From: a virus
Lineage: Duplodnaviria; Heunggongvirae; Uroviricota; Caudoviricetes
Direction: 5' to 3' (one strand)
Virus record (IMG/VR): IMGVR_UViG_2737471854_000004
Coordinates: 1-49,583 of that record
Length of the DNA: 49,583 nucleotides
Under the pieces are notes generated by a model. It had not been told where the DNA came from. It did not search any database and saw nothing but the letters and a program-made list of their open reading frames with translations. Positions 1 to 29,788 of this stretch are shown piece after piece; position 1 is the first letter of the stretch; each line of letters starts with the position of its first letter. The position numbers and the translations under genes were made by a program.

Positions 1-246
1 CTACGATAACCCACTCTTTTGTTGCCCCATTTTTGCCCCTTTTGCAGCGTTTTGCCCCATTTTTGCCACCGAAAAATGCGAGAATTTCTCAATCTGTAGC
101 CTGCAAATTGCGCCCATGAATTCTTTCCAAGAGAATCAGTTTCGGCTGGAAATCATTCAATACTCACACTAAAACAAAAAGCCCGCTTATGGTGGACTGC
201 AGGCTTTTAGATTCCGTGATTTAAAAACAATAGTTATAGAAACAAA

Positions 247-1455
247 TTACCAGCCTACAGCAATACCCCCTCCGATTACTGCTCCATCAGTATTATTCCA
301 TGAAGACGATGCACGAATATTGGTGTTTTCATTAAGTTTGTATTGAACACCAACAGCTACTGCATTACCGTTTCTATAGTTACCAACCCCAACGCCGGCA
401 CTAAATGTCTGGTTATTCACATACGGGATATTGGTCATTGCTGCTACGGAAGCAATACCTGCATTAGCTTTTTTAGCATTAGCTTCTATCTTATCATTCA
501 GCTGCTTAAATGTTGAATTTATCTTCCCATTAATTTGGTTAAATTTTGTATCAGTATATGCGAATGATTCTTGTTTTGCTGATTGTATGTTTTTATTAAT
601 AACACCGTTATTTTTCGTAACTTCCTGATCAGTGTATGCCAGTGATTCATTCTTGGCATTATTAATATTCTGATTTATCACAGCATTATTTTTGGTAACC
701 TGCTGATCTGTATATGCCAGTGATTCATTCTTGGCATTATTGATGTTTTGATTAATTACGGTATTATTTTTAGCTATCTCATTCCCAGTATAATCTTTCA
801 GTTGCTTAACGTTAACACCATCAGTATCCTCAGTACCTGCGGCAACATGGGTCAGTTGTCGATTAGTATTACCCGTCCCAAAAGATACACTATACTCTCT
901 GTCAGTTGTACTTCCCCCGCCGATGGCAACACTATTATTATGTTCAGCCACACTCTGTGAGCCTAGTGAGATGGCATTTTCTGCATTAGATGTAGCCCCT
1001 ACACCAATAGCTAATGTATCTCCTGCAGTCGCCTGGGCGGAGGAACCAAATGCAACACTGTTTTCCCCGGTTGCTTTAGACGCAGCACCTACACTTGTAG
1101 AATTAGCGACTGCCTCACTACCCGCACCATTTGCTATAGCTGAATCACCGTTTACTTTACTAAATGAACCAATGGCTACCGAGTTATTTCCAACAACATT
1201 TGCATTTGCGCCAATAGCTGACGATGAGTTACCTTGAGATGAAGAATATGAACCAATTGCAGTATTATAGGCTCCTTCGGTTTTTGAAACAGCGCCAATT
1301 GTTGTAGAAGAAGAACCTGAAGCATTTGCATATGCACCAATAGCTGTCGCATTACTATCAGTTGCCTGGCTATTATCACCGGCATTATAAGAATTATATG
1401 CATAAGAATTTGCTGAAACTGTAAATATAACAGAGGCTACAAATAGTTTTTTCAT
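247..1455 (-). CDS. Trimeric autotransporter adhesin, YadA/Eib-like (prophage moron)
   Basis: ORF 247..1497; likely start at MKKLFVASVIFTVSANSYA (signal peptide). Many NSxAxG head-type repeats, three tandem stalk repeats (NAVINQNINNAKNESLAYTDQQVTK), C-terminal membrane anchor ending GGIAVGW. Confidence 0.8.
   Translation of the reverse strand: MKKLFVASVIFTVSANSYAYNSYNAGDNSQATDSNATAIGAYANASGSSSTTIGAVSKTEGAYNTAIGSYSSSQGNSSSAIGANANVVGNNSVAIGSFSKVNGDSAIANGAGSEAVANSTSVGAASKATGENSVAFGSSAQATAGDTLAIGVGATSNAENAISLGSQSVAEHNNSVAIGGGSTTDREYSVSFGTGNTNRQLTHVAAGTEDTDGVNVKQLKDYTGNEIAKNNTVINQNINNAKNESLAYTDQQVTKNNAVINQNINNAKNESLAYTDQEVTKNNGVINKNIQSAKQESFAYTDTKFNQINGKINSTFKQLNDKIEANAKKANAGIASVAAMTNIPYVNNQTFSAGVGVGNYRNGNAVAVGVQYKLNENTNIRASSSWNNTDGAVIGGGIAVGW
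540..780. repeat. Tandem ~78-bp coding repeats inside the adhesin stalk
   Basis: Near-identical DNA units 'gtatatgccagtgattcattcttggcattatt...' repeated 2-3 times; correspond to the repeated peptide ESLAYTDQQVTKNNAVINQNINNAKN. Confidence 0.6.
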
Positions 1456-2250
1456 AGAAATGACGTATGTTAAATAGATTGAAAAGATAAGATTCAAATC
1501 AATTAAATGACGCTTTAAAAATAAGCGGCAGGATTTTATTCATCTGATAAAAATAGCGCAAGAGTTGTCTTATATGGAATATTCAGATAAGTCTTATTGA
1601 AAAAACGGTATAACAAATACATAACATTACGGCCATTATAAATACATTATAAAAATTACAGAGATATTTAATTAAATCCAAAGCATTTTTTCAATATGGA
1701 TTTCGAAGAACTTGTTATAGTACATTAATCAATCAATTATAGGTATTTCGCTCACTGTTCATATAGTTTTAATACATCAATGCATAAGAACATTTTCTCA
1801 TTCATAAAAGCGATAAAAACTGTTGTACCTTATATTGTTAATGTTTGGTAACAAAGACAAATCCAACAAGGCATTGATCATCCCCTATGATACCCATAGA
1901 AAGAATTATCTGAAATATAATAACGATATAAAGTATATTATTGCTAATGAAACTATATGATAGCTTCACATTCAGCAATACCTGCTCAACCTTATCTCTG
2001 GAAATGAACATTGCTAACTTTCCTACTCCTTAATCGTTCTCCCAGAGCGCATCATCCACACCGACAATCCCCTCAGGCATCAGCCAGGTGACATTTTCCG
2101 CTAATGGGCTGGTTCAGAGATAAATAGTGCGTCCCCGGAAGCCAAGTCAAAGAGCATTTTTCCCCTGTGACCTTCAACGGCTACTTACTGTTTAAAAACA
2201 GCTACGATGCCAGCATAGATACTCTTGAATACGATGTACTACGTTTTTTC

Positions 2251-2604
2251 TTATTCTGGACTGAACTCCCTAACCTGCTTCAAATCCAGGAGATTGCTCA
2301 GTTCCTCTTTCATTTCACGCTGATGACGATAAATCTCATTATTGCGATCAACCTGCGCCATAGCTGCAGCCAGCTCCTCCAGTTCCGTCATCGACAGTTT
2401 CACCTGCTGATTATCAGCATCACTCCATGTCATAACGTCCCACTGCCCTGAGTCAGCCCCTGCAGCCATTACCACCGGGTAAAGGCGGGCCAGCGAGTCG
2501 GGGCCGCCATTCCAGGTGTGTCCGTTCCATTCGAATGTGAACGGCTGCGCTTCCTGTTCTGTGCGCCACACCTCGATTTCCCGCTTTCTGGCATCCTTTC
2601 CCAC
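2251..2604 (-). pseudogene. Tail-fibre-assembly-like C-terminal fragment (remnant)
   Basis: 117-aa ORF with a motif (FTFEWNGHTWNG...) that I read as Tfa/DUF4376-like; no upstream partner gene; lies in a GC-rich block with broken frames. Confidence 0.3.
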
Positions 2605-3003
2605 GGCGATAAGTTCTGGCGTGACGGTGAACGCAGGGCTGTCCAGTGGCGTTTTGTTTTCGTCTCGTCCATGACGGTTTTGACAGCCTTTGGCGTGGCT
2701 GCCAGTACTTCGCTGTCGTTGTCTGTATCACTACAGAGTTGCGCCAGACCTTTTTTGTCGTGGAAGCATTGCTTCCCTTCAGATCATCAACTATCCATTG
2801 CGCCTCGTCCCTGTGCTGTTTCGCGCTCTGCTGCGCCTGCACCACAGTTTCCTGTCACCACGTCGGCAACTGTGCGCATCACACCTCTGAGGTGTTTACC
2901 CGGGATTTCAGAGTTATGTGGCATCCGTACATGGGGATGCCTGCGCCATCAATCAGCGCACCTGATATCACTACAGACATAGTTTTTCTCGCGATAAATT
3001 AAA

Positions 3004-3549
3004 TCAGGAAGAGGCTTCCAGAGAGACGGGCCATTCAATGGCGTTATATGAGGATTTATCAGTGATGGTGCTGAAATCCATCGCCTGCAGCGATTTCGCG
3101 TAAATGCGGTACGCTTTCAGCTTCTCCCTGTCGTCGTCACTGATTAATCCCAGCAGCAGGTCTTTTTCCCATTCGCTGGTCATGATGCTGACCCGTTGTA
3201 ACAGGGCATCGCGCTCATCTTCCGCTTTAAGTTTGTAGTCGAAGACAAATTTATCGTCGCGGTAAAACCAGTAACCAGGCACGGTAATACGGCGGTTAGC
3301 GGTAATATCAGGAACTTCAATAACACTGGCGTTACGGGGTTCAATGCCTGTCACATCCTTACCGACCCATACCACGCGCCCGTCTCCGGTGTAAACCATT
3401 TTTATGGTGTCACTGGCAAAATTTTTCAGCTCTTCATACCAGTTTTGGTCATCTTCCGAAAAAAGCCAGGTGATACCATGTTGTTTTGTCATCTGATATT
3501 GTTCTGCGGTTTTCGGATTGCCTGCAGTAATATTTTTTAAATGCAACAT
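3004..3549 (-). CDS. Tail fibre assembly protein (Tfa/gpU-like)
   Basis: 181 aa immediately downstream of the tail fibre gene; C-terminal ...KLKAYRIYAKSLQAMD...IEWP motif typical of tail fibre chaperones. Confidence 0.7.
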   Translation of the reverse strand: MLHLKNITAGNPKTAEQYQMTKQHGITWLFSEDDQNWYEELKNFASDTIKMVYTGDGRVVWVGKDVTGIEPRNASVIEVPDITANRRITVPGYWFYRDDKFVFDYKLKAEDERDALLQRVSIMTSEWEKDLLLGLISDDDREKLKAYRIYAKSLQAMDFSTITDKSSYNAIEWPVSLEASS

Positions 3550-3551
3550 TG

Positions 3552-5105
3552 TTAAACACTCGCCACGTTATACCAGGTGCCGTTAATCAGTTTCTGAAGC
3601 GGTCGGTAATACACGCCGTTGACGTTATCCGCTGAATTTTTACCAGTATCCGATATCGATATCCCTGACAATCCGTGTCCCGCAGGAGCGTGATATGTCC
3701 AAGAGATTACATTGCTGCCAGGTTTGTAATACATTTCGGAACCATAGCGCACATCCTGCACGCCGCCATTTCGCTGCTGATAACGGGCATCGAAATTTCC
3801 ATAGTTTGATGGGGTCATCTGTCCGTTTACAGCGAATGTGATACTGCCATCGGTATTTCTCTGGCTGTAAAAATGCCAGCCGGAATCATCACCAAGCTCT
3901 GCAACTACAGGTCGGGATGAATTACCCCATAAATTAAACGTTGCGTTTTTCGTGGAGTTGTTGGCGCTGGATAACGTGAATTTTTTAGCATTTCCGGCCT
4001 GAATATTTTTTAACGCTATCGCCACACCATTCTGGAAACGAAATACATGCTGTCCATTCGCATAAACATCCAGAATGCCGTCGCCGTTTTGTTTTATACC
4101 TGTATCGTTATCCCCGAAAGCAATTGAGTTTCCGCCCAGCGCGTTCTGAACGCCGATACCCAGTGCACCATTGACCTGAGAACCACCGCCAACAGACACT
4201 TTATGCGACATGGATATCTCTCCTGTCCGCAAATTAATGGTGAGCGGACGCAGGGGACCAATATCTCCATTCTCGCCCTGACCTTCACTAGTAGGGATAA
4301 GGTGCAGGCACTCTTCAGAACGGCGAAAAATAAGGCCAAAAGCCTCGTTAAAAATCCTCAATGCATTAACACCACGTATTTTCAGCTCCCCGGTCATCAA
4401 ATCACCAGATTTTTTTACATATCGCAGATCAAAATCTGAATAGATATTGCCGGGGTTTATCACACTGAAATAGCTTTTCTCGCTATCAAGAAGGCAAATC
4501 AAAGGAATACCCTTAATGATATCATTCGCTACCAGCTCGGACTTGTTCCCCTTATAAAGTGGGAACGTACCAAGAACCTTTCCGCCTAGTGTTAGTTGAA
4601 GTGTCGCCGCGTTGGTATTGTTCTGAACGGGGAAAACTATAATCGGGGTTCGTAGCGTCCAATCTGTACCTCCATTAACAAAAAACGTCGAGGGAAGTTC
4701 CAGCGTCAGTGCGTTTGCAGTGCCACCAGTAACACCCGCAATATAATGACCGCTCTGAAGCTGCGCTATCTGTACGAAATAGTTTTCCGAACCACGCGTG
4801 GCAAAGTTAGCCACAACATCATTAAGGGACCAACCTTTCGCGGTTGTTCCTTCCTGCCCACGAATGACTTTCAACACATCACCGCTTACCGATACCAAGT
4901 GACAAATCTCAAATGCAGACTCTTTATTATCGGTAAGCGTAATTTTTGCATAGACGCGTTGCCCGTTCGATTTATTTTCAAAATCGGCAGAAAGCAATTT
5001 TGCAAATTTAGCCCCTGTACCGGGCATTACCGGAATATCAGTCTGAATCGTGGTGATATCACCAGCCAGTGCTGAAACAACGTTATTGCCGAACCCAAGA
5101 ATCAT
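3552..5105 (-). CDS. Tail fibre protein
   Basis: 517 aa, Gly/Asn/Thr-rich, follows baseplate genes and precedes tfa with a 3-nt gap. Confidence 0.7.
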   Translation of the reverse strand: MILGFGNNVVSALAGDITTIQTDIPVMPGTGAKFAKLLSADFENKSNGQRVYAKITLTDNKESAFEICHLVSVSGDVLKVIRGQEGTTAKGWSLNDVVANFATRGSENYFVQIAQLQSGHYIAGVTGGTANALTLELPSTFFVNGGTDWTLRTPIIVFPVQNNTNAATLQLTLGGKVLGTFPLYKGNKSELVANDIIKGIPLICLLDSEKSYFSVINPGNIYSDFDLRYVKKSGDLMTGELKIRGVNALRIFNEAFGLIFRRSEECLHLIPTSEGQGENGDIGPLRPLTINLRTGEISMSHKVSVGGGSQVNGALGIGVQNALGGNSIAFGDNDTGIKQNGDGILDVYANGQHVFRFQNGVAIALKNIQAGNAKKFTLSSANNSTKNATFNLWGNSSRPVVAELGDDSGWHFYSQRNTDGSITFAVNGQMTPSNYGNFDARYQQRNGGVQDVRYGSEMYYKPGSNVISWTYHAPAGHGLSGISISDTGKNSADNVNGVYYRPLQKLINGTWYNVASV

Positions 5106-5728
5106 TTTTGAATCACCGTTGTTGCATAAGAATAAATAAAAGGGAGTTTTACATATTTCTGGTCAATGGCATCTTTCAGAAAATAGCCTATACCATCACC
5201 ATATTCTGGTATATGAATAGAAAAAACACTGTCCGACACAGTCACGCTCACATCAAAAGTGTGCTGCAACGGCGGGTCTATTCCATTTTTTCCATGAATG
5301 AACCGCGCCACACGGCGCTTTAACCAGTCAATGCAGAAATGCGAACCGTCAGCCTTATAAAAATTCCACGTTAATATTCGTTTGAAATAATCATCAGGAA
5401 CATACGATGCCTGCCCCGGAACGTAATTCCGCATTGCTGCATACGGGATCGTATTGTATTCAATGGTATCGTATGCGCCGCGTGCAATAGCCTCCTCGGA
5501 AACCTGTAGTAAAGGCCTTTCAACGCCATAAATCCCGAGTGCAATCCAGTCCAGCAATTGCCCGGTTATTGATTCCGATGTCCAGCATGGCAATGCCAGA
5601 TTGTTGAGTGAATCGAGGTATTCCTGAGCAATTTCATTGTATGCATCAAAGAACGCAACAACATTCGGATCATCTCTGTACTGCACAAATGGATAAGCAG
5701 GGAGAATTTTCTCAGTCAGATATTGCAT
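5102..5728 (-). CDS. Baseplate/tail protein (Mu gp48 / DUF2313-like)
   Basis: Position between baseplate J and tail fibre; start moved to the internal Met (MQYLTEK) to give a short overlap with the upstream gene. Confidence 0.45.
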   Translation of the reverse strand: MQYLTEKILPAYPFVQYRDDPNVVAFFDAYNEIAQEYLDSLNNLALPCWTSESITGQLLDWIALGIYGVERPLLQVSEEAIARGAYDTIEYNTIPYAAMRNYVPGQASYVPDDYFKRILTWNFYKADGSHFCIDWLKRRVARFIHGKNGIDPPLQHTFDVSVTVSDSVFSIHIPEYGDGIGYFLKDAIDQKYVKLPFIYSYATTVIQK

Positions 5729-6938
5729 ACTTGTTGACCTGAACCTGTGATGCCACCGTTGAAAAATAGGAATAGGTATCGCCATAAACCAGGCTTGTAT
5801 CTTTCGCCGGAAGAACAATGTGGCCGTTAATACCAATGCTCACACTGATTGTTGAGATCAACGTCGAATCAACCAGCAACCTGACAGAACTGGTAAAAAT
5901 ATCCTGGATACGCAGAAGATTTATCGGGTGTCCGACTTCAATTGAATTGATGTAATCAGCAACGTTTTGCTGCACAGCCATAGCAATACCCGCCGGATCA
6001 ACATAATCATCAGACACCGTGTTCCAGGTGATTAGCACCATGACGTTTTGTGATGACGGGATAACGAACGGCACCTGATAAACGTCCGGCGAAACGGTTA
6101 TTGAAACCGTGCGTTTTTCCACTGCCGCACCGGATGGATTGCTTACATCGTTGGTCAGTTTCGAAATATCCGGTACAGATTTGTAAATCGCATAAGCCAC
6201 ATCATACGGATCACCGCCACCAACAACCGCAACCCATTTCCCCAGCGACGACTGCCGGAAAGAAATCAGGTTTTCTCGCACACCGCTTACTGATTTGAGC
6301 ATCGCTTTAAAGCAATCCGGAGTTCCCTGCACACCAAACATGCCGGACTCCATGACTTCGGCGCGGTAAGATGCCCACGTCTGCGCCTCCTGACCTGGCA
6401 TCCCTGCGGTAAGGTTCGTGCATTTTACAGGCTGGTCTTTTGGTACTGAGGTAATAACCTGCGTCACAGTCCCTTCCGGCACAGCCCATGAGCCTGACGT
6501 TGTGGCCACACAGTAGACTGGTTCAGACTGCCCACTTTCCGGCACCACCGTATCGCGGGAAACTGCATACTGGTAGTTGCCATCACCGACAACAAATCCT
6601 TTAGGGATACCAAACCCCGGCAACGCCTCAAATACCACGTATACCGCAGTATTTGTACTTAATCCCTTCTGTGCTCCATAAATGTTTCCGAGTTGCATCA
6701 GTAACGGAATATTCGCACCGTATGGGCTTACGGAGTTAATAAGGTCCACCCGCGCCTGGTCTATTAATGCCAGCGCCCCGATAGCCGTGCTGGCAAGGTC
6801 TGTAATAAGTCCCGCCGGAAGGTTGGCTGTATATCTAGGTACTTTTTCAGCAACTCTGATGATAAGATTTGCAAGCAAATCATTGGGTGGCGTAGGCTGC
6901 GCCCCCGCACTGGTCATAGTAATTGGTATTTCTGACAT
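5712..6938 (-). CDS. Baseplate J-like protein
   Basis: 408 aa; size and position typical of baseplate J / Mu gp47 family upstream of the tail fibre. Confidence 0.55.
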   Translation of the reverse strand: MSEIPITMTSAGAQPTPPNDLLANLIIRVAEKVPRYTANLPAGLITDLASTAIGALALIDQARVDLINSVSPYGANIPLLMQLGNIYGAQKGLSTNTAVYVVFEALPGFGIPKGFVVGDGNYQYAVSRDTVVPESGQSEPVYCVATTSGSWAVPEGTVTQVITSVPKDQPVKCTNLTAGMPGQEAQTWASYRAEVMESGMFGVQGTPDCFKAMLKSVSGVRENLISFRQSSLGKWVAVVGGGDPYDVAYAIYKSVPDISKLTNDVSNPSGAAVEKRTVSITVSPDVYQVPFVIPSSQNVMVLITWNTVSDDYVDPAGIAMAVQQNVADYINSIEVGHPINLLRIQDIFTSSVRLLVDSTLISTISVSIGINGHIVLPAKDTSLVYGDTYSYFSTVASQVQVNKYAISD

Positions 6939-6949
6939 ATTTACTCCAT

Positions 6950-6977
6950 TAAAAAACCCGCTTTCGCGGGTTTTTTA
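6950..6977. terminator. Bidirectional intrinsic terminator hairpin
   Basis: AAAAAACCCGCtttcGCGGGTTTTTT: 6-bp GC stem flanked by an A-run and a T-run, so it reads as a terminator on both strands; sits directly after the cargo gene stop. Confidence 0.7.
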
Positions 6978-6978
6978 C

Positions 6979-8139
6979 TTATTCAACCTCTTCTAAACTG
7001 CTCACTCTGGACCCTCGGCGGAAATTATCATCATTTTTAACATACTCGTATGAATCCAGAATCAAACCAGATATGCGAAGTATATCTTCAGGATTAGTTA
7101 TATGTATCCTTTTACCATCCGTATCAAGTCGAGCTCGTCTTATTTCATTCAACTGAACTTCACTAAGCGAAATAGGTAAAGTTATAAATGAAGATTTTTT
7201 ATCATAAAATCTTAACAGCCATCTATTGGTTTTACCATTCAATAGTACGCCGAAATATGACTCAGTATCTTTATATTCTATATTATCTTCTGTTTGTATG
7301 ATTTGTTTTACCCTTTCAAATAGCTCCAATTCTTTGGCTGTGGTTATTATGTTGGGGTTTTCTTCATCAACAATGGCGTTATTAACTTGTGTATCCGTTG
7401 CATCATTTTCTTTAGTTTGCTCTACCGGTTGTGTAGATAGCCCGGAAACCACCATTGCGCTAACAGCGCGCTCAACGGCCTGTTTAACTAATGGAGTCAC
7501 GAACTCAAGAAATCTCTGATTAAGTTGTCTCTCAATATTTGAACGACTAGCAACATATCGAACAAACTCCAGATCAACTTCACGAAGACTAGAACTGATT
7601 GTTTTAGTAAATGAATTCAAATAAACACTTTCTTCAGCCAGTGTCCGTAAAGCCTCTGGTTTGAATTTATCATAACGAAAACGAAATAATTGTGTAATAT
7701 CGGAGTGAGTTAGAGAATCCATTCTTATTTTTAAAAACGGCGTTGAATCCATTATGTTTTTTTGTTTCAAATCCGTAAAAAAACGCCATTCAACACCATT
7801 TGTAATGGCTGATATAGTAACTTCCGGTGTTGAATTAAAATATCTTGATAGCTGTGGGCAGTGATTATCAATTTGTTCTGAAAACGATTTCGCCTCAATG
7901 AACATCACAGGAACATCATGACAAAATAAAGCGTAATCAACCCGTTCATTAGCCTTAACCCCGGGGAAGTCAGCACTATACTCAGCTTTGACTTTTCTTG
8001 GATCATACGGAGTAAAACCAAGAATATCTAGTAATGGCATAATGAGTGCTTGTTTTGTCGTTTCTTCAGTTGTACAAAACACCCCCATTTTTGCAACATG
8101 CTCTGTGTGTATTTTTAACTTATTTGCAAAATTTTCCAT
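6979..8139 (-). CDS. Cargo protein with N-terminal HsdR-N/Mrr-type PD-(D/E)xK nuclease-fold domain; C-terminal domain unknown
   Basis: ORF 6979..8154; GGAGG RBS favours the second ATG (MENFANK). Motif TEETTKQALIMPLLDILGF...VDYALF...VMFIEAKS...QLSRYF. AT-rich and non-overlapping, unlike its neighbours. Confidence 0.6.
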   Translation of the reverse strand: MENFANKLKIHTEHVAKMGVFCTTEETTKQALIMPLLDILGFTPYDPRKVKAEYSADFPGVKANERVDYALFCHDVPVMFIEAKSFSEQIDNHCPQLSRYFNSTPEVTISAITNGVEWRFFTDLKQKNIMDSTPFLKIRMDSLTHSDITQLFRFRYDKFKPEALRTLAEESVYLNSFTKTISSSLREVDLEFVRYVASRSNIERQLNQRFLEFVTPLVKQAVERAVSAMVVSGLSTQPVEQTKENDATDTQVNNAIVDEENPNIITTAKELELFERVKQIIQTEDNIEYKDTESYFGVLLNGKTNRWLLRFYDKKSSFITLPISLSEVQLNEIRRARLDTDGKRIHITNPEDILRISGLILDSYEYVKNDDNFRRGSRVSSLEEVE

Positions 8140-8288
8140 GCTTGTCTCCTCCATGGTAACAATATGTATTTTGCAAATCCGAAATAATATATGTCAATAT
8201 GCTCCAGCTTAGAAAATTACTCGCCCCCCTAAAATATCTCTCTACAGCACTCCAAACCAAGGTAAAAGTTTTATCATAAAACTGTGAT

Positions 8289-8636
8289 TCATACCGGCAC
8301 CTGCGTCCGGTAACTGGTCCCATTAAAAAACACAACATCGATGTTATAGGTGGGGTTATCTGCTCCATCTACCTTTGAAATTGCCAGTGATGCAAAATAC
8401 CCAGCAAACTGTTGCTGAACCATGTTCACATAGTAGTCTGGGTAAATCTGCTGCACGATGCACTGCTGCGCAGGAATACCGTAATTCGCGTAAAACGGCG
8501 ACTCCCCCAATCCCAGCTTTAACGTCTGAATGAGCGTCGTCAGCCAGCCGTAGGAGAAATCACCGTTGGCGTCAGATTCTACTGCAACCCATTTTTTGTT
8601 GCCGTTCGCGTCGGTGACGCGGCCCCATGTTCTCAT
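8289..8636 (-). CDS. Putative baseplate protein (gp46/gp25-position)
   Basis: 115 aa between the spike-like and J-like genes; assignment by position only. Confidence 0.35.
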   Translation of the reverse strand: MRTWGRVTDANGNKKWVAVESDANGDFSYGWLTTLIQTLKLGLGESPFYANYGIPAQQCIVQQIYPDYYVNMVQQQFAGYFASLAISKVDGADNPTYNIDVVFFNGTSYRTQVPV

Positions 8637-8836
8637 CGTGCCCCCATCACTTTAACTAACTCTGTCAGTACTGGTGAAAAGGCAAATGCTAAAGCTACGA
8701 GTGCAGCGGTGTAATACATGCGTCGTAAGGTATTGCTTTTTGCCACTAATTTTAAGGCTTTCACAATCCAGTCTCCTCCGCTAAAATTAATCACGGAAGA
8801 CCTCCAAACATACGTAATCATCCCTTGCGTATTCAA
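8633..8836 (-). CDS. Small hypothetical protein with hydrophobic segment
   Basis: 67-aa ORF overlapping the next gene by 4 nt; one predicted hydrophobic helix (AALVALAFAFSPVL). Confidence 0.3.
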   Translation of the reverse strand: MNTQGMITYVWRSSVINFSGGDWIVKALKLVAKSNTLRRMYYTAALVALAFAFSPVLTELVKVMGAR

Positions 8837-8847
8837 GGTGAGAAACA

Positions 8848-8885
8848 GAAAACCCCGACTGGGCCAACAGTCGGGGTTTTCGTTT
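8848..8885. terminator. Hairpin followed by T-runs (terminator-like, both strands)
   Basis: CCCCGACTGggccaaCAGTCGGGG followed by TTTTCGTTTT on the + strand and a T-rich run on the - strand. Confidence 0.5.
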
Positions 8886-8918
8886 TATGGTTAGAATTTA
8901 AAGTGAAATGAACCGGTA

Positions 8919-9632
8919 TTAACCAGGATTTGGTTTCTTCGACGTAATCGTGCTGCTGCCGCTTTGAACACCAGTCACATCGTGGCTGTGGCCGCTGACG
9001 CTCACGCCGTTGATAACTGCATCCATCTCGACATTAAGAGGACCAATCAGCGAAGCGGTTGTATCCTTCATCTGGGCTTTGTCCTGGACGATCGGTCCGT
9101 TGAGGTGAATTTTCCCGTTCAGGAAAATATCTTCGGCCTCGAGGTAAACAGCTTTCGACTTTTGCCTGATTTCTTCCAGAGCCACCATTACCGAGCTACT
9201 GCCGTCCTCTGTTTTGAGGATCGCGCCATCCGGACCGTACAAAACGATTTTTTGCGGATCTTCGTCGGACCACTCCTTGTTTGCCAGTGGCACGAAAAAC
9301 AGGGGAGTGAGCGACATCGAGTAAGAAAGCGTTGCCATACCGGTTCCCAATCCGGACACACCGCGCAGTGATACATCAGCGGCAATTGTTACTCCTCGAT
9401 CGCCCGGCTGTATCGGGTAACGGATATACGGGAATGTGGCGACAGGGATTGTTATCTGCGGGAAGTTGATCCCCTCCGGCAACATATCAAACTGAACTGT
9501 CACTATTTGCCCGCAGATATCGACAACATGGCAGGGCAATTCGCGGCCTTTAAGCTCGGCTTGTTGGTTACCAGAACTGGTCATCATCTCCGACAGTGTT
9601 CGGAGAAACGGTAATTTTTGAGCGTTTGACAT
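8919..9632 (-). CDS. Baseplate spike/assembly protein (gpV / Mu gp45-like)
   Basis: 237 aa; position between the hub-like and gp46-like genes. Confidence 0.5.
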   Translation of the reverse strand: MSNAQKLPFLRTLSEMMTSSGNQQAELKGRELPCHVVDICGQIVTVQFDMLPEGINFPQITIPVATFPYIRYPIQPGDRGVTIAADVSLRGVSGLGTGMATLSYSMSLTPLFFVPLANKEWSDEDPQKIVLYGPDGAILKTEDGSSSVMVALEEIRQKSKAVYLEAEDIFLNGKIHLNGPIVQDKAQMKDTTASLIGPLNVEMDAVINGVSVSGHSHDVTGVQSGSSTITSKKPNPG

Positions 9633-20114: not shown

Positions 20115-20823
20115 TGTTCAGGCTCCCTTGAGTGTTAATTTTTGCCAGACGACGCCCCGGAATTTTGAAAGCACTCAGCCAGACGTTCGGATCGCCCTGA
20201 TATTCAGTAATGCGACGTCCGGCTTCATCGTTGCGGATACGTTTATGAAGTTGCCCCTGCGTACTCATCATTTCTTTTTCGATGGACTGACGGGCGGCAC
20301 TGAAAATTGCGTCCTCAAGCACAGCCAGCGTTGCAGAATCCGCAATCGCGCGAATATTGACGTCCTTATGTGCCGGAGAGTGTTTCTGCATAGCGATTAG
20401 CGCACGCTTGCGGTAGTCCAGCGCATTTTCACCAGAAAACGGTGCTGGCGCGTTTTTACCGCAGGCACTGAATGCGGAGTCGGCTTTTGCCTGTGCTTCT
20501 GCCAGGGCTGAGTCATTGCGTTCTTTTTCTGCCTCCTCGGCAGCCTTACGCTGTTCTTCCGCTTCGGAATCAGCCTTTGCTTTCTCCTCAGCGTCTTTAG
20601 CTGCCGCCTCGTCAGCTTTGGCTTTTTCTTCCGCCTCCTTTGCCGCAGCTTCATCAGCTTTACGTTGTTCCTCTGCGGCTTCATCGGCTTTGGCCTTTTC
20701 TTCGGCCTCTTTTTTCGCCTGTTCTTCGGCATCCGCCCGCGCTTTGTCCCGCTGCTCCAGTGAGTCCATGCGCGTAACGACACCATCGATTTTCTGATTA
20801 ATGCCTTGCAGGGCATCGCTCAC
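20107..20823 (-). CDS. Putative scaffolding protein (coiled-coil, Ala/Glu/Lys repeats)
   Basis: 238 aa with tandem AEEKAKADEAA(A/E)(K/E) repeats; sits just upstream of the capsid block. Confidence 0.5.
   Translation of the reverse strand: MSDALQGINQKIDGVVTRMDSLEQRDKARADAEEQAKKEAEEKAKADEAAEEQRKADEAAAKEAEEKAKADEAAAKDAEEKAKADSEAEEQRKAAEEAEKERNDSALAEAQAKADSAFSACGKNAPAPFSGENALDYRKRALIAMQKHSPAHKDVNIRAIADSATLAVLEDAIFSAARQSIEKEMMSTQGQLHKRIRNDEAGRRITEYQGDPNVWLSAFKIPGRRLAKINTQGSLNNG
20480..20780. repeat. Tandem coding repeats (~33 bp) in the scaffold-like gene
   Basis: Repeated DNA unit gcttc(g/a)tcagctttggc(c/t)ttttcttc(c/g)gcctc visible on the + strand. Confidence 0.55.
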
Positions 20824-21428
20824 AACCCCTGTAACAGGGCCTGGAGTTCTTCTTTTTCCATCTCGATTTCACCTGTGTTTGTCACTTCAACCCCTGCGGG
20901 GATCCGGTCTTTATCCCACACACCCAGCGAGCCGTGGGCTTTCGTCACCAGGGCGATATGATCAACCAGGAAAGGAACGCCCTCGATTAAAAAATTGGTG
21001 TCACCTTCCTGTACTTCCACATTTCCTGATGTGCTGTTGAACACCACCGACGGACTTGTCGAAACATCCCCCTCAGTGATTTCTTCAACAATGCTCTGGA
21101 GGTAAACGCGGCACACCGCCCATACCTCATCACCCCGGATATACGGCAGCATGACGCTACCGACGATCCGCGATTTAAAATCCTCCTCCGTCAGAACTGC
21201 GTCGTCAGGATGGTTTGTGATAACCGGAAGGCCATTGCATCGCCTTAAAAACTCCTCGTTCAGATAGAGCTTTGGATCACGCCAGACGTGCTCTTTCAGC
21301 CCGGCGCGATAGGCAAGCCCGGTTCCGGTTATGCGCAAATTCACCAACCACATGTTGGAGAATTTCACCGGAGACGGTACGGTTCCGTCCCTGATGCGTT
21401 CTGCCACTTCAAGCTCGGTTAAACTCAC
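20820..21428 (-). CDS. Head morphogenesis-region protein (possible prohead protease or virion morphogenesis protein)
   Basis: 202 aa between the head-morphogenesis and scaffold genes; assignment by position only. Confidence 0.3.
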   Translation of the reverse strand: MSLTELEVAERIRDGTVPSPVKFSNMWLVNLRITGTGLAYRAGLKEHVWRDPKLYLNEEFLRRCNGLPVITNHPDDAVLTEEDFKSRIVGSVMLPYIRGDEVWAVCRVYLQSIVEEITEGDVSTSPSVVFNSTSGNVEVQEGDTNFLIEGVPFLVDHIALVTKAHGSLGVWDKDRIPAGVEVTNTGEIEMEKEELQALLQGL

Positions 21429-22242
21429 GTTTGCCCTTCTCCGTTAAAAATTCGTCGGGTAGTTTCTGAGGGGCGTAGATCGGCAGAGCATCGCAACTGC
21501 AATAAACCTCCTCCCCGGCAGCAGTGATTTCGTCATAAAAACCATATACGGGCTTAATAAGCCCCTGCTCCAGCGCCCACGAATCGCGGAGGAGATAAAT
21601 TTTCTCGTCGCGCTCTTTGTGGTCCTGTCGGTATTTGTAGCCCGGACGCCGCCAGTTAGAATGCCAGCGCAGAGCAATCGCACCACTCTGAACAGCCAGC
21701 AGATACTTAACGTTGCTCGCCAGCTTATGTCCCTGGTCAATTGCCACCCGGCGACTGATAAAATCCATATCCTTCACGGACTTCTGAAAACCGGACTTCA
21801 CTTCCCGGCGATCAATTTCGCTCACCCCGTCAGGCGGAATGGACGTAACCCATCCCTGAAAACGCTGTATGGTTTTCTCGATAGCCTGTTCGCGGTTGAG
21901 TTTTATCAGGTTGGCACTGGCGAAAATTCGCCTGTCGAGTTCCTTGCGAAACTCAGGTTTCAGTTTTTCAACAGTGATTTTTTTAGGGCCGTCAGGAGGC
22001 TGATCCCGTAATGCCCCGCCGTCGATGACAAGACGGCTGTAGATAGCGGTGAGATGTTTTCTGGCTACGGTATCATCAGGGGTTTCTCGCTGAGCGGCTA
22101 CACGGAGTTTCCGGCACCATTCGAGCAATGATTTTTCGCTATCCCACCCGTGATTTACGTAGTAGTTAACGGCATCCGTCAGAACCTCATACAGCGTCCT
22201 GATCCGTTTCTTCTTCCTCCCCGCCCGGCTGGAAATTGCCAT
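21409..22242 (-). CDS. Minor head / head morphogenesis protein (F-like)
   Basis: ORF 21409..22380 overlaps the portal by 193 nt; start moved to the internal Met (MAISS...). Immediately downstream of the portal. Confidence 0.4.
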   Translation of the reverse strand: MAISSRAGRKKKRIRTLYEVLTDAVNYYVNHGWDSEKSLLEWCRKLRVAAQRETPDDTVARKHLTAIYSRLVIDGGALRDQPPDGPKKITVEKLKPEFRKELDRRIFASANLIKLNREQAIEKTIQRFQGWVTSIPPDGVSEIDRREVKSGFQKSVKDMDFISRRVAIDQGHKLASNVKYLLAVQSGAIALRWHSNWRRPGYKYRQDHKERDEKIYLLRDSWALEQGLIKPVYGFYDEITAAGEEVYCSCDALPIYAPQKLPDEFLTEKGKREFNRA

Positions 22243-23626
22243 CAGGCGTCTCCTGCTTCGGTGGTTCATAATTCGCCAGGGCGTCCACATCAATGATGAG
22301 TGGAGCTTCGCCATAGGTCTGCGTGGCATTAACAAGGCTTGCCAGCCATTCAGTGACGGCGGCACGGTTTTCAGGATCAACCTGTAGCGACACGGCAGAG
22401 AAAAGTGCTATCGCCTGTTGAATCACTTTACTGTCGCTTTCCCGGCGTTTGTCCGGCGACTCCTCCACCAGCTCCTGCCACGTCGCGGTAAACTCGCGCC
22501 GCCACTGGTAAAACGTGGTTTTATAGTCCTCGGTTATGATGTCCGGGTAATCATTTTTCAGCGACTGATAAAATTCCTCGTTCCAGGCGATGTACTGCAC
22601 CAGGCGTTCGAAATAATCCATCACAGGTTCAATCTGCTGGCGTACACCATCGATATACTGGCTGATGGCTTTCGAGTCCTCGGTTCCTTCACCGAAACCA
22701 TTCGAGAAAGCCTCCTCCTTGATGAGAATCGCGGGAACATCGCTACCTGATGCAATATCGGAAATAATGTTGTCGCGGGCGGCATTTAGCGCGCCATCGA
22801 TGTTTTGTAAATTCAGCGAGGTAACGTCCTCATCCTTCCCGATACTAAGCACACCTTTATTTTTTGCCTCTTTGACATTTTCCCTTTTTCGTCCCGTGGC
22901 GGCAGCCATGATCCCGTCAAGTTTCGAACCATACTGCACAACTTTAGCCACCAGCACGCCTGCCTTCTGGCTGACGAGATCATTCGCCTCCATCGTATTG
23001 ATATAGGATTTCAGGGAATAAAGAACGCGCTGAAACACGCTTCGCCCGGTGAATCCGAACGATGAACTCTGAAACTCCAGATAAATCGGTGTGCCATTGA
23101 AAATTTTCAGTGTGCGTGACGGATGCCAGTCTTTTCCGCCAATCTTCAGCTTTTTATTGGCTTCCTGGAAAAACGGGCTGTTTGGGTTCTGGTCAGTCAC
23201 CATCGAACCAGAAGCGTTCAACGGGTCCCACGCGTTGATATACACATCATCTTCTGTCAGTCCGAATGTCGGAAGCGGCTCACGACATGGAACACTGTCG
23301 GTGCCCACGCCGATCGCTGCGGCACCGTAGCAACGAGACAGAAAAAACAGATTTTTAATCTTCTCGTTAACCTTCATACGTTCCCATACCTCCTGGAAAC
23401 GCCGCACAACCCGCTCGTCAGGGTCTGTCTCCACGTTGTACTGACGCGGCTTACACATCGCCATAAGTATGGGTTTTTCGACAAGTTTTCCGCCCAGAGG
23501 ATGGAATTGCCACAGCTGCTTACACAATTCATAGCCAATGTCGGTTCCCGGCTGAATTTCTTCAGCCTCAAGAATATGCATCAGTGCTGAACCGAGGCCG
23601 CCAGTAATCTCGATCTCTGCCATCAA
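22187..23626 (-). CDS. Portal protein
   Basis: 479 aa directly downstream of the large terminase; acidic C-terminus. Confidence 0.55.
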   Translation of the reverse strand: MMAEIEITGGLGSALMHILEAEEIQPGTDIGYELCKQLWQFHPLGGKLVEKPILMAMCKPRQYNVETDPDERVVRRFQEVWERMKVNEKIKNLFFLSRCYGAAAIGVGTDSVPCREPLPTFGLTEDDVYINAWDPLNASGSMVTDQNPNSPFFQEANKKLKIGGKDWHPSRTLKIFNGTPIYLEFQSSSFGFTGRSVFQRVLYSLKSYINTMEANDLVSQKAGVLVAKVVQYGSKLDGIMAAATGRKRENVKEAKNKGVLSIGKDEDVTSLNLQNIDGALNAARDNIISDIASGSDVPAILIKEEAFSNGFGEGTEDSKAISQYIDGVRQQIEPVMDYFERLVQYIAWNEEFYQSLKNDYPDIITEDYKTTFYQWRREFTATWQELVEESPDKRRESDSKVIQQAIALFSAVSLQVDPENRAAVTEWLASLVNATQTYGEAPLIIDVDALANYEPPKQETPDGNFQPGGEEEETDQDAV

Positions 23627-23640
23627 AAATATCCTGATTT

Positions 23641-24969
23641 TTACAACTCCGCGTAATTACCGTGCGCGATGATCAATCCATAGGTGTAACAATCGAAAAG
23701 GTCATCAGCACGTTTATGCGCGTCTTTATCCGCCAGGTGGAATCCGGCGATTTGTTTTATGAGGTGGTTTGCGGTGGTGCGCTTGAATGAAACGGTCTTG
23801 TCGTAAGCCTCCCGGACGATTTTGCACATCCCCTGATAGTGGTAGCTGGATGCCATCACCGCCCGTTCGTCTTTGCCCTTGCTGGTTAGTGCCGATTTAA
23901 TCGGCGTCATATCCCAGCCTTCGGTTTCCGCCTTCTGGTTGAGGATTGCCCCCATCGCGGCGTCTTCCATAAAAATTCCCTGGCTGCCCAGACGCGGACG
24001 GCATAATTTCGCGAGGCGCTCAAGGTTGTCATAAACGCCGGGGATATATTCAGGAAGCAATGACGCTTTAATTTGCGTAACATCCCAGTCAATAATCGTC
24101 AGTTTTGGCTCTTCCGAATACGTTGACTCATAAGCGAAATACAACACGCCAGTACCATCATTTTCGGTCCCGCCTTTCAGCGCCGTATCCATCACTGCGA
24201 AAATCATGTCGCAGTACGGCGGCATCTCAATCGGCTGACCGTCCACCAGCAGCTTATCGACATCGAGTAACGCGTCTTTGGACCAGTCCACGAACTCGGC
24301 AAGATATTCCTGCTGCCAGACGCGCGGATCGGATTTCTTCTCCGTTTCCTCCAGTTCTTCTTTCGGAATATACGGATTCGATGAAGTTGGCGCATGGTGC
24401 ATGACAAATCCCAGGGATTCATCGTGGCATATCGCGTAGAAAAAATTGCTCTCGTCGATACCGTTTGGTGTGGAAAATACCCACGCACAGCCGCGGTAAT
24501 CGACAAGCGTCGGGCGTATAGCTCGGGGCCAGATTTCCTCGAGCATTTCCGGCGATTTAGTGAATGCTGCCTCATCAATCAGCACAGCGTGATATTTACG
24601 CCCACGCCCGGCCAGTTTGTTATTGTCCGTTACCCAAAAGTCGATGCGCCCCCCATTACGGAGAATAATGCGCTTTTCATTTTTTGACTGGCTGAGGATC
24701 AGCGGTTGCAGAACGGCGCTAATTTCATCCCAGATTTCCTGGTACTGGCGGTATTGTGCGGTAAAAATCCCCACCCTACCCGCGATAAGTTGCCCGGTGG
24801 TAGGAACGGCAAATTTCCGCGTAGCGAAACTGGTAGCGATGTTTACCAGCATCACCGTTTTACCCCAGCGACGACCACAGCATACCGCGTGGAAGCGTTC
24901 CTCTATTGCCGCCGTCCATGCAGCTATTTGCCCCTCATGAGGTTTTGGGAGGTAGATTTCAATCGACAT
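23641..24969 (-). CDS. Terminase large subunit
   Basis: 442 aa; Walker A-like CCGRRWGKT and Walker B-like VLIDEAAF; C-terminal nuclease-like region with acidic residues. Confidence 0.8.
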   Translation of the reverse strand: MSIEIYLPKPHEGQIAAWTAAIEERFHAVCCGRRWGKTVMLVNIATSFATRKFAVPTTGQLIAGRVGIFTAQYRQYQEIWDEISAVLQPLILSQSKNEKRIILRNGGRIDFWVTDNNKLAGRGRKYHAVLIDEAAFTKSPEMLEEIWPRAIRPTLVDYRGCAWVFSTPNGIDESNFFYAICHDESLGFVMHHAPTSSNPYIPKEELEETEKKSDPRVWQQEYLAEFVDWSKDALLDVDKLLVDGQPIEMPPYCDMIFAVMDTALKGGTENDGTGVLYFAYESTYSEEPKLTIIDWDVTQIKASLLPEYIPGVYDNLERLAKLCRPRLGSQGIFMEDAAMGAILNQKAETEGWDMTPIKSALTSKGKDERAVMASSYHYQGMCKIVREAYDKTVSFKRTTANHLIKQIAGFHLADKDAHKRADDLFDCYTYGLIIAHGNYAEL

Positions 24970-26050
24970 TATCCACTCCCGGCATCGGCAGAGAGTTGTG
25001 GATAATTATTTCGTTATTCTCACCACCCACGCCTTTTTTGAGGTTTTCAATCTCAGTGCGCAGCTTTTCGTTGCGAAGCCTCAGTCCTTCAAGCTCCAGA
25101 TCATTGCGACTGTCAGTTGCACCACCAGCAGAACTTCCTTTCGTCGCCATTATCAGCTTGATAAGTTCGCGCCGGGCGGCAGCCTTATCCTCCAGCAGGA
25201 TCTCAACACCAAATTTCCCGAGCTTTGCCCCTGCATATAATTGTCGCGCATCCCCATCAAGCAGAGTGGTATCAGCCATATAAAGCTGTCCCGTTCCCTC
25301 ACCGCAGCACTTCGGACAATCCGGATTGGGTATGGCGTTATCAACAAAGCCGAGGCCTCCATATTCCGGCTCGGGTTTGCCATCTCTGGAGGCCTGTGCC
25401 GCTGCCTTATCGAATTCTGCAATATCACGCCACTGGTAGAGATGATTCTCGCCCCAGCAATAACGGCAGTTAACACGGCGAAATTGTGCCAACTGATTGG
25501 GGTCGGCCTGGACAATAGCCATCAACTGACTCACCAGTAAATCCAGGTCTGCGGTATAGCGTTTCTGATACTGATTGCGGAAGTAGCTGATAGCACGATA
25601 AACCCTGGCATTTCTAAGCATACGGCTGGCGTTGCTGTTAGCTGTCGCACCTTGCCCCTCATAACCAGCCAGTCGGTATGCCTCTGTCGGCTTTTTCCCC
25701 TGAGCAACAAGCATCGCAAACTTAGCCTGCTGGTCAGAAATGCCGAATTCATCGGGGCAGAACGAAAATTCCTCCGCGTCGCCCTCATTCAGGCACGCAT
25801 CGGATACTGGCTTTTTTTTCTGAGATTTTCCGTTCCGCTTTTGCGCAGTCTGCGCAGATTTTTTCTGCGCACTTTGTTGCGCAGTTTTGCGCATTTCTGT
25901 CTGCGCATTTTTCGGAGGTTTTTTGATGTAACGACGGGCTGTTGCGTAATTCAGTCCCCTTGCCTCACACCATGCCACCGGAGATACACCGGAGCGGGTG
26001 TATTCAGCAATATATTCCTGCTGCAACGCCCCCCAGTCCGGTCTGCTCAT
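24959..26050 (-). CDS. Terminase small subunit (with N-terminal HTH and a Cys-rich zinc-ribbon-like segment)
   Basis: 363 aa; central motif FAMLVAQGKKPTEAYRLAGYEGQGATANSNASRMLRNARV resembles the terminase small subunit signature; CxxC...CxxCC cluster; overlaps terminase large start. Confidence 0.55.
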   Translation of the reverse strand: MSRPDWGALQQEYIAEYTRSGVSPVAWCEARGLNYATARRYIKKPPKNAQTEMRKTAQQSAQKKSAQTAQKRNGKSQKKKPVSDACLNEGDAEEFSFCPDEFGISDQQAKFAMLVAQGKKPTEAYRLAGYEGQGATANSNASRMLRNARVYRAISYFRNQYQKRYTADLDLLVSQLMAIVQADPNQLAQFRRVNCRYCWGENHLYQWRDIAEFDKAAAQASRDGKPEPEYGGLGFVDNAIPNPDCPKCCGEGTGQLYMADTTLLDGDARQLYAGAKLGKFGVEILLEDKAAARRELIKLIMATKGSSAGGATDSRNDLELEGLRLRNEKLRTEIENLKKGVGGENNEIIIHNSLPMPGVDNVD

Positions 26051-26053
26051 TAG

Positions 26054-26305
26054 TTAGTCCTGATTTTTATCCACCCTGAGTAGTTCACGCAGGGCAAAGG
26101 CATCCCCTTTTCTGGCAAGCTTAAACAATGCCGCCCGTAGTTCGGCTTCACCTTTCGCTCTGCCCTTACGGATGGATGCGTAAAAATCTGTCATTGCTTC
26201 CCGATTTTCTTTCAGTCGGTTCAGATCAACATCCAGAACGTCAGCGATTTGTTGTGCAGTCATCCGGCACGCTGCCAGAGACTCGACTTTCGAATACGGA
26301 ATCAT
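26054..26305 (-). CDS. Small hypothetical protein (possible HTH)
   Basis: 83-aa ORF upstream of the small terminase; start uncertain because it overlaps the upstream gene by about 65 nt. Confidence 0.25.
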   Translation of the reverse strand: MIPYSKVESLAACRMTAQQIADVLDVDLNRLKENREAMTDFYASIRKGRAKGEAELRAALFKLARKGDAFALRELLRVDKNQD

Positions 26306-27957: not shown

Positions 27958-28557
27958 ACAGCCTCGCTTTATGAATAAAAAAGCCCACTATCGGCCAGTG
28001 CGCTGGGTGCGCGGCGGGTGCTGATAACGAGCTTTGACATTATCGCAGCCCCTCACACTGAAGGGCTGCTGTAATGCCTGTTACTCACAAATCAAACGAG
28101 CATGCTGACCACTCATTTCAATGCGTAAGTATTGTGGCTTGCCGTCAATCAACGCGGTGATTAACTTGTCACCTGTAGGTGTCCACATAATTTTCTCCTG
28201 TTTTAATGCCCCTTGCCGCCAGGCAGTTGATCAAAGTTCATCTTGATTCGGCAAGATTTAGAATGAATAAGATAAAATTGGCACACGCAGCAGAATTTCA
28301 TACTTTCCGGACGCTGACGCACCCTTCATTTTTCAGCAAAATATTCTGCTATTACAGGCGATCAGTTCTGCATACACTGCCGAACACCGTCGACAATTTC
28401 ACAAACCTGAGAAGATGTATCGAAAAGCTGGCGCGCCTTATCCAGACTGACGCATCCCGCCAGAAAAAAGGCACCAGTATCGCTACCAGTGCCCATTTCG
28501 CCGCCGTTCGCGGCATTCTGTGTGTCCAGTGTTTTCTGCTCATAACACACCTGGTTA

Positions 28558-29758: not shown

Positions 29759-29788
29759 TAAAAAAAACCGCCCGGTAGAGGCGGTTGG
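29759..29788 (-). terminator. Intrinsic terminator upstream of the lysis cassette
   Basis: On the - strand: AACCGCC-loop-GGCGGTT followed by eight Ts. Confidence 0.7.

Follow-up and report, generated by a model that had tools for sequence, protein, structure and literature searches.

What occupies the stretch of DNA between a tail fiber assembly gene (tfa) and an adhesin gene near one end of IMG/VR virus record IMGVR_UViG_2737471854_000004? This Caudoviricetes record was analyzed over its full length of 49,583 nucleotides (nt), referred to here as the window, and the stretch in question contains only broken frames. A preliminary description, made from the sequence alone, took it for the remnants of a second, lambdoid-type side tail fiber (stf) locus. 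Matches to the families PF08400 and PF03406 bear out the presence of a second locus of the Stf type. We conclude with high confidence that positions 2069 to 2980 of the minus strand are the nonfunctional relic of the distal tail fiber cassette of a prophage of the Rac-SA53 type, integrated at the ttcA/uspF site.

Four decayed pieces in one block

The impression of a GC-rich block with broken frames was accurate. The GC fraction is 0.52 to 0.58 over positions 2250 to 3000, versus 0.26 to 0.37 in the adjoining 1350 to 2100, and zero frames are open from one end of the 2250 to 3000 block to the other. Minus-strand positions 2069 to 2980 comprise four dead pieces, two from stf, one from a DUF4376 gene, and one from a tfa. 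Approximately 730 nt is retained, versus approximately 3,700 nt in intact loci; about 3.0 of the 3.7 kb is gone. Compared with the intact relatives, the window lacks the Stf shaft and receptor-binding tip, together with the 5′ third of the gene for the chaperone.

RefSeq/PGAP lists four entries for identical DNA, and these are already scored as frameshifted or incomplete apart from a coding sequence (CDS) of 33 amino acids (aa). The entries are a "tail fiber assembly protein" (frameshifted and incomplete; pseudo-CDS at 2069 to 2178), a "DUF4376 domain-containing protein" (incomplete), a "phage tail protein" (frameshifted and incomplete), and the 33-aa CDS, a "prophage tail fiber N-terminal domain-containing protein." The locus is a case of ordinary gene decay, and its pseudogene status already stands in public annotation. 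A promoter and terminator scan of the block yielded nothing exceeding the shuffled expectation, and a regulatory role for the block was therefore left without support. The sole terminator-like hairpin is weak and lies at the stop of the first tfa.

The stf pieces and their intact relatives

The 5′ stf fragment (2840 to 2980, minus strand) holds codons 1 to 47 of a side tail fiber gene of the Rac-SA53/52F4 type and is 97% identical to the stf of the 52F4 prophage (167/172, one gap). Its ATG, at 2978 to 2980, is 23 nt past the end of the first tfa. A 1-nt deletion at 2882/2883 makes a TGA at 2879 to 2881, and this stop accounts for the 33-aa open reading frame (ORF) at 2879 to 2980. When the frame is corrected to include the 33-aa ORF and the next 14 codons, 2840 to 2980 matches positions 1 to 55 of the 134 positions of PF08400 (Prophage tail fibre N-terminal; E = 1.2e-17), with only the first 40% of the domain left in the window. 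The start of the protein is 49% identical to residues 1 to 39 of K-12 StfR (E = 1e-9).

The internal stf fragment (2617 to 2832, minus strand) corresponds approximately to Stf residues 215 to 287 and is 95% identical to the 52F4 stf (207/218, 2 gaps). At 2652 to 2756 it encodes the minus-strand peptide KKGLAQLCSDTDNDSEVLAATPKAVKTVMDETKTK, which had been quoted in the preliminary description as resembling a conserved Stf motif. The resemblance is far beyond chance. The region matches PF03406 (Phage tail fibre repeat) with an E value of 4e-13 and 49 bits against a cutoff of 22, membership being judged by the motif GxxQLSSxxxSxSExxAATPKAVK, and it is 63% identical to StfR residues 465 to 494. This fragment has 1-nt deletions at 2755/2756 and 2651/2652. 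No Stf ORF runs unbroken through a shaft to a C-terminal receptor-binding region in the window; compared with 52F4, the locus has three deletions as well as three frameshifts of 1 nt each. Because the ORF is broken and the C-terminal region is gone, the stf locus is considered a pseudogene and not a member gene of the family.

Four relatives have the locus intact. In each, genes for baseplate J, a 208-aa protein, and fiber 1 precede tfa, and a complete stf and a DUF4376 gene come next, separated from tfa by the same short spacer. The last two genes encode tail3 (1,061 aa) and tail4 (187 aa) in Rac-SA53 (KU052037), gp69 (667 aa) and gp70 (187 aa) in vB_Apl-pPE4 (PP818812), L56 (490 aa) and L57 (188 aa) in the Stx2e phage phiP27 (NC_003356), and proteins of 1,047 aa and 190 aa in the 52F4 prophage, which occupies the same chromosomal site as the window. 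A search of the literature for Rac-SA53 found a single incidental mention. The four intact Stf proteins have their N-terminal 223 residues in common, and all but the 52F4 protein also share the last approximately 270 residues (89 to 93% identity), a conserved C terminus that fits the strongly conserved DUF4376 partner.

The nearest known counterparts of the decayed locus are the tail3-tail4 pair of Rac-SA53 and its equivalents in pPE4 and phiP27. In the window, as in these three phages, stf directly follows fiber 1 and tfa with a 23-nt spacer and near-identical first 47 Stf residues. The PF03406 motif and the DUF4376 family are also shared with these phages, and the attachment site is shared with Rac-SA53. 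The window differs in that its frames are broken, whereas the loci of the three phages are intact, with Stf proteins of 490 to 1,061 aa and DUF4376 proteins of 187 to 188 aa. Because the 23-nt spacing equals that of the intact relatives, the stf pieces belong to the fiber 1 module. Because intact Stf and DUF4376 genes stand directly behind fiber 1 and tfa in four relatives, the two-fiber tandem appears to be the native architecture of this phage type, with stf probably having decayed in place. The proposal that the second locus was lost when the present fiber module was acquired is contradicted by Rac-SA53, pPE4, phiP27, and 52F4, all of which hold both loci intact in tandem.

A DUF4376 gene behind stf

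The third piece (2251 to 2633, minus strand) holds the C-terminal 126 codons of a 188-aa gene of the tail fiber chaperone type, with its stop codon at 2251 to 2253. Within the 126-codon open stretch (2251 to 2631) sits a GTG-start, 117-aa ORF (2251 to 2604) that had been taken for the C terminus of a Tfa protein. The ORF exists, but it belongs to a different family. The piece matches PF14301, the DUF4376 family, with an E value of 1.5e-17 (64.4 bits, cutoff of 25) over profile positions 3 to 96 of 106, as well as phrog_1141 (E = 4e-46) and phrog_7703 (approximately 1e-46). Its protein is 69% identical to pPE4 gp70, and from 2550 downstream it is 100% identical to the alleles of Escherichia coli strains A2 and 1303. 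The 117-aa ORF has no match to PF02413, the BLASTP comparison with TfaR gave an E value of 16, and hhalign of six intact DUF4376 proteins against six Tfa proteins gave a probability of 0.6%; together these results rule out a Tfa identity. Intact DUF4376 homologues are 187 to 190 aa long with a conserved N terminus (mean column identity of 85% in the alignment). The window piece begins at approximately their residue 63, at the junction described below as junction 2, and the conserved N-terminal 62 residues and the gene's own start are lost.

DUF4376 proteins encoded just downstream of the fiber genes of Alteromonas phage V22 act as fiber chaperones, and V22 gp27 was shown by experiment to be necessary for maturation of the fiber gp26 (PMC7289586, PMC10579305). 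Like the relatives of the window, the myovirus V22 encodes its DUF4376 protein right after a tail fiber gene. However, the V22 and enterobacterial proteins are distant, with the domain alone in common, and the chaperone role is known from V22 gp27 only. By analogy with gp27, the DUF4376 protein may have been the chaperone of this phage's fiber, and the assignment of the 117-aa ORF to Tfa, although wrong at the family level, would then be functionally close. Two regions of the window match the profile phrog_11571, namely the N-terminal half of Tfa (3004 to 3549) and the DUF4376 domain (2251 to 2631), a double match that suggests the existence of natural hybrid chaperones with a Tfa N terminus and a DUF4376 C terminus.

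The tfa scrap and the comparison with K-12 Rac

The fourth piece (2069 to 2235, minus strand) is the middle of a tail fiber assembly gene of the TfaR/lambda type, equivalent to 55 aa from approximately residues 45 to 104. Besides lacking both termini, it is interrupted internally by a gap of 5 codons and by a frameshift. The scrap is 62% identical to TfaR residues 52 to 104 (BLASTP, E = 6e-19) and 79% identical to K-12 tfaR at the DNA level (blastn, E = 8e-18); a tblastn search of the window with TfaR 45 to 102 gave an E value of 2e-9. No match to Pfam PF02413 was found, the scrap being too short. The notion of an ancestral stf/tfa pair was thus correct in that a TfaR-like fragment is present but incorrect in its location, because the fragment lies outside the 117-aa ORF that had been read as Tfa.

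In E. coli 1303, the same DUF4376 gene is followed by a longer remainder of this tfa, 128 codons from the C-terminal end, with only the N terminus missing. The DUF4376 allele of 1303 is in a lambda-type prophage at another site, near prfC. Because 1303 has the same DUF4376 allele followed by a tfa without its N terminus, the scrap appears to be an older scar. It would have been left when a cassette of stf tip plus DUF4376 replaced a cassette of stf tip plus tfa, and it would have been cut again at approximately 2068 upon insertion of an AT-rich island with a YadA-like adhesin. At the left breakpoint of this island (2030 to 2068, minus strand), homology to the 1303 tfa stops and the GC content falls, and the match to one genome starts at 2068.

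The analogy with Rac in the preliminary description proved to be literal, in that the prophage lies between uspF and ttcA, where Rac attaches, and has the Rac early genes. The stfR-tfaR locus of K-12 Rac (b1372-b1373), a relative at the family level, is in the same prophage family and at the same chromosomal site, and the comparison with it was positive for both genes, over 39 aa of the Stf N terminus (49%; E = 1e-9), 30 aa of the PF03406 region (63%), and TfaR residues 52 to 104 (62%; E = 6e-19). The differences are substantial. The lambda-type tail remnant of K-12 Rac (ynaA, lomR) and its pinR are without homologues in the window; the Stf of K-12 Rac is paired with a Caudo_TAP Tfa, whereas the Stf of the window is paired with DUF4376; and DNA similarity does not extend beyond a 97-nt segment of tfaR and a 96-nt segment close to attR.

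The position of pinR next to tfaR in K-12 Rac raises the question of whether the block is the silent half of an invertible tail fiber segment, comparable to the G segment of Mu, the C segment of P1, or the P segment of e14, and the first tfa does have approximately 70% DNA identity to U and U′ of Mu and P1. However, the remnants are co-oriented with the expressed fiber genes, as are the loci of the intact relatives, no PinR homologue is present anywhere in the window, and no inverted repeats flank the block. With neither an invertase nor inverted crossover sites, this explanation is refuted, and its probability is considered negligible.

Deletions at short direct repeats

The anatomy of the deletions was determined by base-level alignment to the intact stf and DUF4376 gene of 52F4, used as a proxy for the parent, with inspection of the repeat copies. 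At the first stf junction (junction 1; 2833 to 2853, minus strand), two deletions lie side by side. Deletion A removed approximately 191 nt, out of frame, between GGAAACTGTGGTG and GGAAATGGTGGCG (repeat GGAAAnTGGTG). Deletion B removed approximately 303 nt, in frame, between two copies of AGCAGAGCGCG. An 18-nt island, CAGGCGCAGCAGAGCGCG, was kept between them, within 2833 to 2853. At junction 2 (2617 to 2633, minus strand), there is a 17-nt homology, CGTTCACCG(G/T)CACGCC, with one copy in stf (AFTGTP, codon approximately 282) and one in the DUF4376 gene (PFTVTP, codon approximately 63). Both parental copies are present in 52F4, and the BLAST blocks overlap at 2617 to 2633. The approximately 2.5 kb between the copies was lost, fusing Stf codon 282 or so to DUF4376 codon 63 or so. 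Each of the three deletions is at short direct repeats of 11 to 17 nt, a pattern suggestive of recombination by slippage or through short homology. Decay of the cassette would thus have involved two internal stf deletions, a third deletion that fused stf to the DUF4376 gene, and three further 1-nt deletions that broke the remaining frames.

Each junction was searched for separately in 5,426 complete E. coli genomes. Both were contiguous in the same 15 genomes, which have two different downstream cargos. In dozens of other genomes, the flanks of junction 1 are separated by approximately 606 bp, as in an intact locus. Differences between the window and other carriers of the junctions are few. 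Compared with OkiPb01675, the remnant has 5 substitutions and the 1-nt deletion at 2652 in 423 nt, and the neighboring tfa has 4 in 546 nt. Compared with EC11 across 2030 to 3010, there are only two differences, the missing G at 2652 and a single nucleotide polymorphism at 2454. The deletion at 2651/2652 that accounts for the missing G is restricted to the window and three NWU strains.

The adhesin and the mosaic pattern of the locus

The gene at 247 to 1455 (minus strand) encodes a 402-aa YadA-like trimeric autotransporter adhesin with YadA_head, YadA_stalk, and YadA_anchor Pfam domains. Its matches in the Protein Data Bank are YadA, BpaC, and AtaA, with no Eib among them, and an Eib identity is unsupported. 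The adhesin is 402 aa in the window versus 454 aa in E. coli O155 NWU_3, with a 156-bp copy-number difference in the stalk repeats (approximately 550 to 771). The 600 bp upstream of the gene has a GC content of 26 to 28%. The gene lies within the prophage, approximately 350 bp from attR, where K-12 Rac carries pinR-ynaE-ynaM; it is cargo in the right end of the prophage.

Adhesin and stf deletions have different distributions. In strain A2, a gpJ-stf tail of the lambda type is followed by a complete DUF4376 gene (188 aa), the same tfa scrap, and the same adhesin; the spans of the window matched by strains C41 and ZYB62 are those matched by A2. Five genomes of the OkiPb01675 type have both stf junctions but no adhesin, the cargo there being a hypothetical protein and a helix-turn-helix (HTH) protein. 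Because each occurs without the other in other genomes, the stf deletions and the adhesin are separable events, and the suggested link between loss of the locus and acquisition of the adhesin did not survive this comparison.

A 30-nt sliding identity profile of the window against OkiPb01675 and A2 indicated how the two features may have come together. Positions 2581 to 2700 are 96 to 100% identical to OkiPb01675 and 30 to 76% identical to A2. Positions 2030 to 2550 are 100% identical to A2; within them, 2191 to 2550 is only 26 to 93% identical to OkiPb01675, and OkiPb01675 has no counterpart for 2071 to 2190. The switch falls in a conserved stretch of the DUF4376 piece (2551 to 2580, minus strand), the presumed site of a homologous crossover. 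Homologous recombination inside this DUF4376 stub probably brought the deletions and the adhesin together in the window, the adhesin block having arrived, in this scenario, from an A2-type Rac variant.

These patterns also bear on the order of events originally envisaged, in which a stf-tfa pair of the lambda or K-12 Rac type was resident first and was deleted or overwritten when the fiber 1-tfa module and the adhesin entered. A TfaR-like scrap at 2069 to 2235 would be expected from such a pair, a lambda-tailed Rac variant with the order gpJ-stf...DUF4376-tfa scrap-adhesin does exist in A2 at the same site, and the right part of the locus, 2030 to 2550, is entirely of the A2 type. However, the stf remnant starts 23 nt past the first tfa, exactly as in the intact Rac-SA53, pPE4, phiP27, and 52F4 loci, and the deletions are at internal repeats of stf and the DUF4376 gene, away from the module borders. 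Furthermore, deletions without the adhesin and the adhesin without deletions both exist. A resident pair displaced by the present module is thus considered improbable.

Limits of the relic interpretation

Several observations weigh against the interpretation of the locus as a simple relic of a Rac-SA53-type cassette. First, the DNA at 2581 to 2633 is only 60 to 86% identical to sampled intact DUF4376 genes. Because no intact parent has the exact allele, the size of deletion 2 and its origin within a single genome are estimates made through the proxy 52F4. Second, either the deletions or the adhesin insertion may have come first. Third, the fusion created by deletion 2 is in frame in 12 of the 15 genomes with the junctions (EC11 and OkiPb01675 types), in which PGAP calls a 165- or 166-aa "DUF4376 domain-containing protein" that joins the Stf motif to DUF4376. 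Because of these in-frame fusion ORFs, the lack of function may be less than total in the wider group.

The poor match at 2581 to 2633 could also be explained if junction 2 were an illegitimate or short-homology crossover between two Rac-type phages, in which the left arm would derive from a phage of the Rac-SA53 type and the right arm from one with another DUF4376 allele. The same attachment site is used by Rac variants whose tail modules are unrelated, and a second, clearly homologous crossover lies just 50 to 80 nt away. However, a simple deletion between the 17-nt copies of a single locus, as found in 52F4, suffices to produce the junction, and unsampled allele diversity explains the mismatch equally well. 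An origin of junction 2 from two phages is possible but unlikely.

The in-frame fusion raises the further possibility that the remnant is functional, with the 33-aa Stf peptide or the 165-aa fusion serving to plug the baseplate or to chaperone fiber 1. In addition to the open frame in 12 of the 15 genomes, the DUF4376 domain is complete in Pfam terms (positions 3 to 96 of 106), and phrog_11571 points to chaperones that combine a Tfa N terminus with a DUF4376 C terminus. However, the called start of the fusion ORF is a non-ATG codon (translated as L) within frameshifted stf sequence, the N-terminal 62 residues conserved in every intact DUF4376 protein are missing, and the fiber tip that accompanies this type of chaperone has been deleted. 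In the window, the fusion frame is itself broken by the 1-nt deletion at 2652. A functional remnant is thus very improbable. It is just as hard to credit that the 165- to 166-aa fusion is an expressed and selected chaperone or adaptor for the remaining fiber and that the window copy became a null allele only very recently, through loss of the G at 2652. A functional fusion is unlikely in the 12 open-frame genomes and is excluded for the window by the frameshift at 2652.

Loss of a side tail fiber without loss of the phage has a precedent. Hendrix and Duda are said to have described in 1992 that orf401 and orf314 of lambda PaPa represent an stf frameshifted relative to that of Ur-lambda. The stf frameshift of laboratory lambda is the closest functional precedent and shows side fibers to be dispensable. 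In lambda PaPa, as in the window, an accessory side tail fiber gene was killed by frameshift in an otherwise complete phage, and the Stf N-terminal and PF03406 regions are homologous. The lambda lesion is a single 1-nt change with tfa kept, whereas the window has lost approximately 3 kb, with the receptor-binding tip and some of the chaperone gene among the missing parts.

The prophage setting

The window is a Rac-family prophage at the ttcA/uspF site, and the adhesin and the remnants are inside the prophage. Positions 158 to 10452 and 30259 to 49583 align with the DNA between uspF and ttcA of NWU_3 at 99.7 to 99.98% identity outside the adhesin repeat region. The part aligned with NWU_3 includes the Rac early set intR, xisR, ralR, recT, recE, racC, ydaE, kilR, ydaF, and ydaS/T/U/V, as read from the RefSeq annotation of the NWU_3 counterpart (99.98% identity) of window positions 30259 to 49583. 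This set runs from ydaV/U/T at approximately 39.5 to 41.6 kb to intR at the window end. An att core common to K-12 ttcC and the annotated Rac-SA53 attB lies approximately 90 to 110 bp left of window position 1, and positions 1 to 94 are 90% identical to the attR-proximal end of K-12 Rac. The int-xis-recET-kil set and the shared att core thus identify the prophage as a member of the Rac family.

The NWU_3 annotation is no stand-in for the whole window, as positions 10453 to 30258 are absent from NWU_3. These 19.8 kb, lost from the otherwise near-identical NWU_3, hold lysis, terminase, head, tail, and baseplate genes. The lysis, head, tail, and baseplate genes of pPE4 (gp36 to gp68) have counterparts in the window for all but a few accessory genes. 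Most counterparts are full length with 80 to 100% identity; that of the tape-measure-like gp56 is 71% identical, that of gp42 begins at residue 44, and two genes are split. From this comparison, the Rac-type prophage of the window appears close to complete. The split genes, both on the minus strand, are the counterparts of gp46 (440 aa, DUF2213/"TolA"; 20820 to 21428 and 20107 to 20823) and gp49 (156 aa; 18164 to 18424 and 17928 to 18167), and they could be pseudogenes or annotation differences.

The first tail fiber genes are intact. The first tfa (3004 to 3549, minus strand) encodes a Caudo_TAP protein (PF02413, E = 6e-22; phrog_136) that is 93% identical to pPE4 gp68. The adjoining 517-aa tail fiber gene (3552 to 5105, minus strand) matches tail fiber PHROGs, and its product is 83% identical to pPE4 gp67 over its full length.

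Other cargo is present elsewhere in the prophage. Between baseplate genes, 6979 to 8154 (minus strand) encodes a 391-aa protein with a type I restriction enzyme R N-terminal domain (PF04313, 5.6e-14; PF13588). The same slot in Rac-SA53, pPE4, and 52F4 holds an antirepressor and two small genes on the opposite strand, and the position looks like a cargo hot spot within the tail operon. Just upstream of the terminase genes, 26241 to 27957 (minus strand) encodes a TET-associated glycosyltransferase (PF20691, 1e-34) beside a ParB_N-domain protein, which may be a phage DNA modification module; the DNA at 27704 to 28001 is 91% identical to the ynaK region of K-12 Rac. Early-region cargo at 34201 to 39318 includes an LA2681-type HEPN protein (PF18733, 4e-31), with a Hok/Gef gene nearby. 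An internal tyrosine recombinase fragment is at 36172 to 36645, and the window carries in two parts (37013 to 38488 and 38773 to 39318) a plus-strand gene whose NWU_3 version encodes 756 aa. The record PP818812.1, named "Actinobacillus phage vB_Apl-pPE4," is approximately 95% identical to the window prophage over about 20 kb and has recET, kil, and ydaT. Judging from this similarity, Actinobacillus is a doubtful host for vB_Apl-pPE4.

Implications

The locus is a clean example of the decay of a tail fiber cassette through short-repeat deletions and frameshifts, although as such it carries little weight alone. For annotation, neither the 33-aa "tail fiber N-terminal domain" CDS nor the 117-aa ORF should be scored as a gene. 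The conserved stub of the chaperone gene is usable as a crossover point, through which a YadA-like adhesin may be moved as cargo between Rac variants with unrelated tail modules. A near-complete prophage of the Rac-SA53 type in this state would display at most one of its two ancestral fiber sets, which bears on the prediction of its host range.

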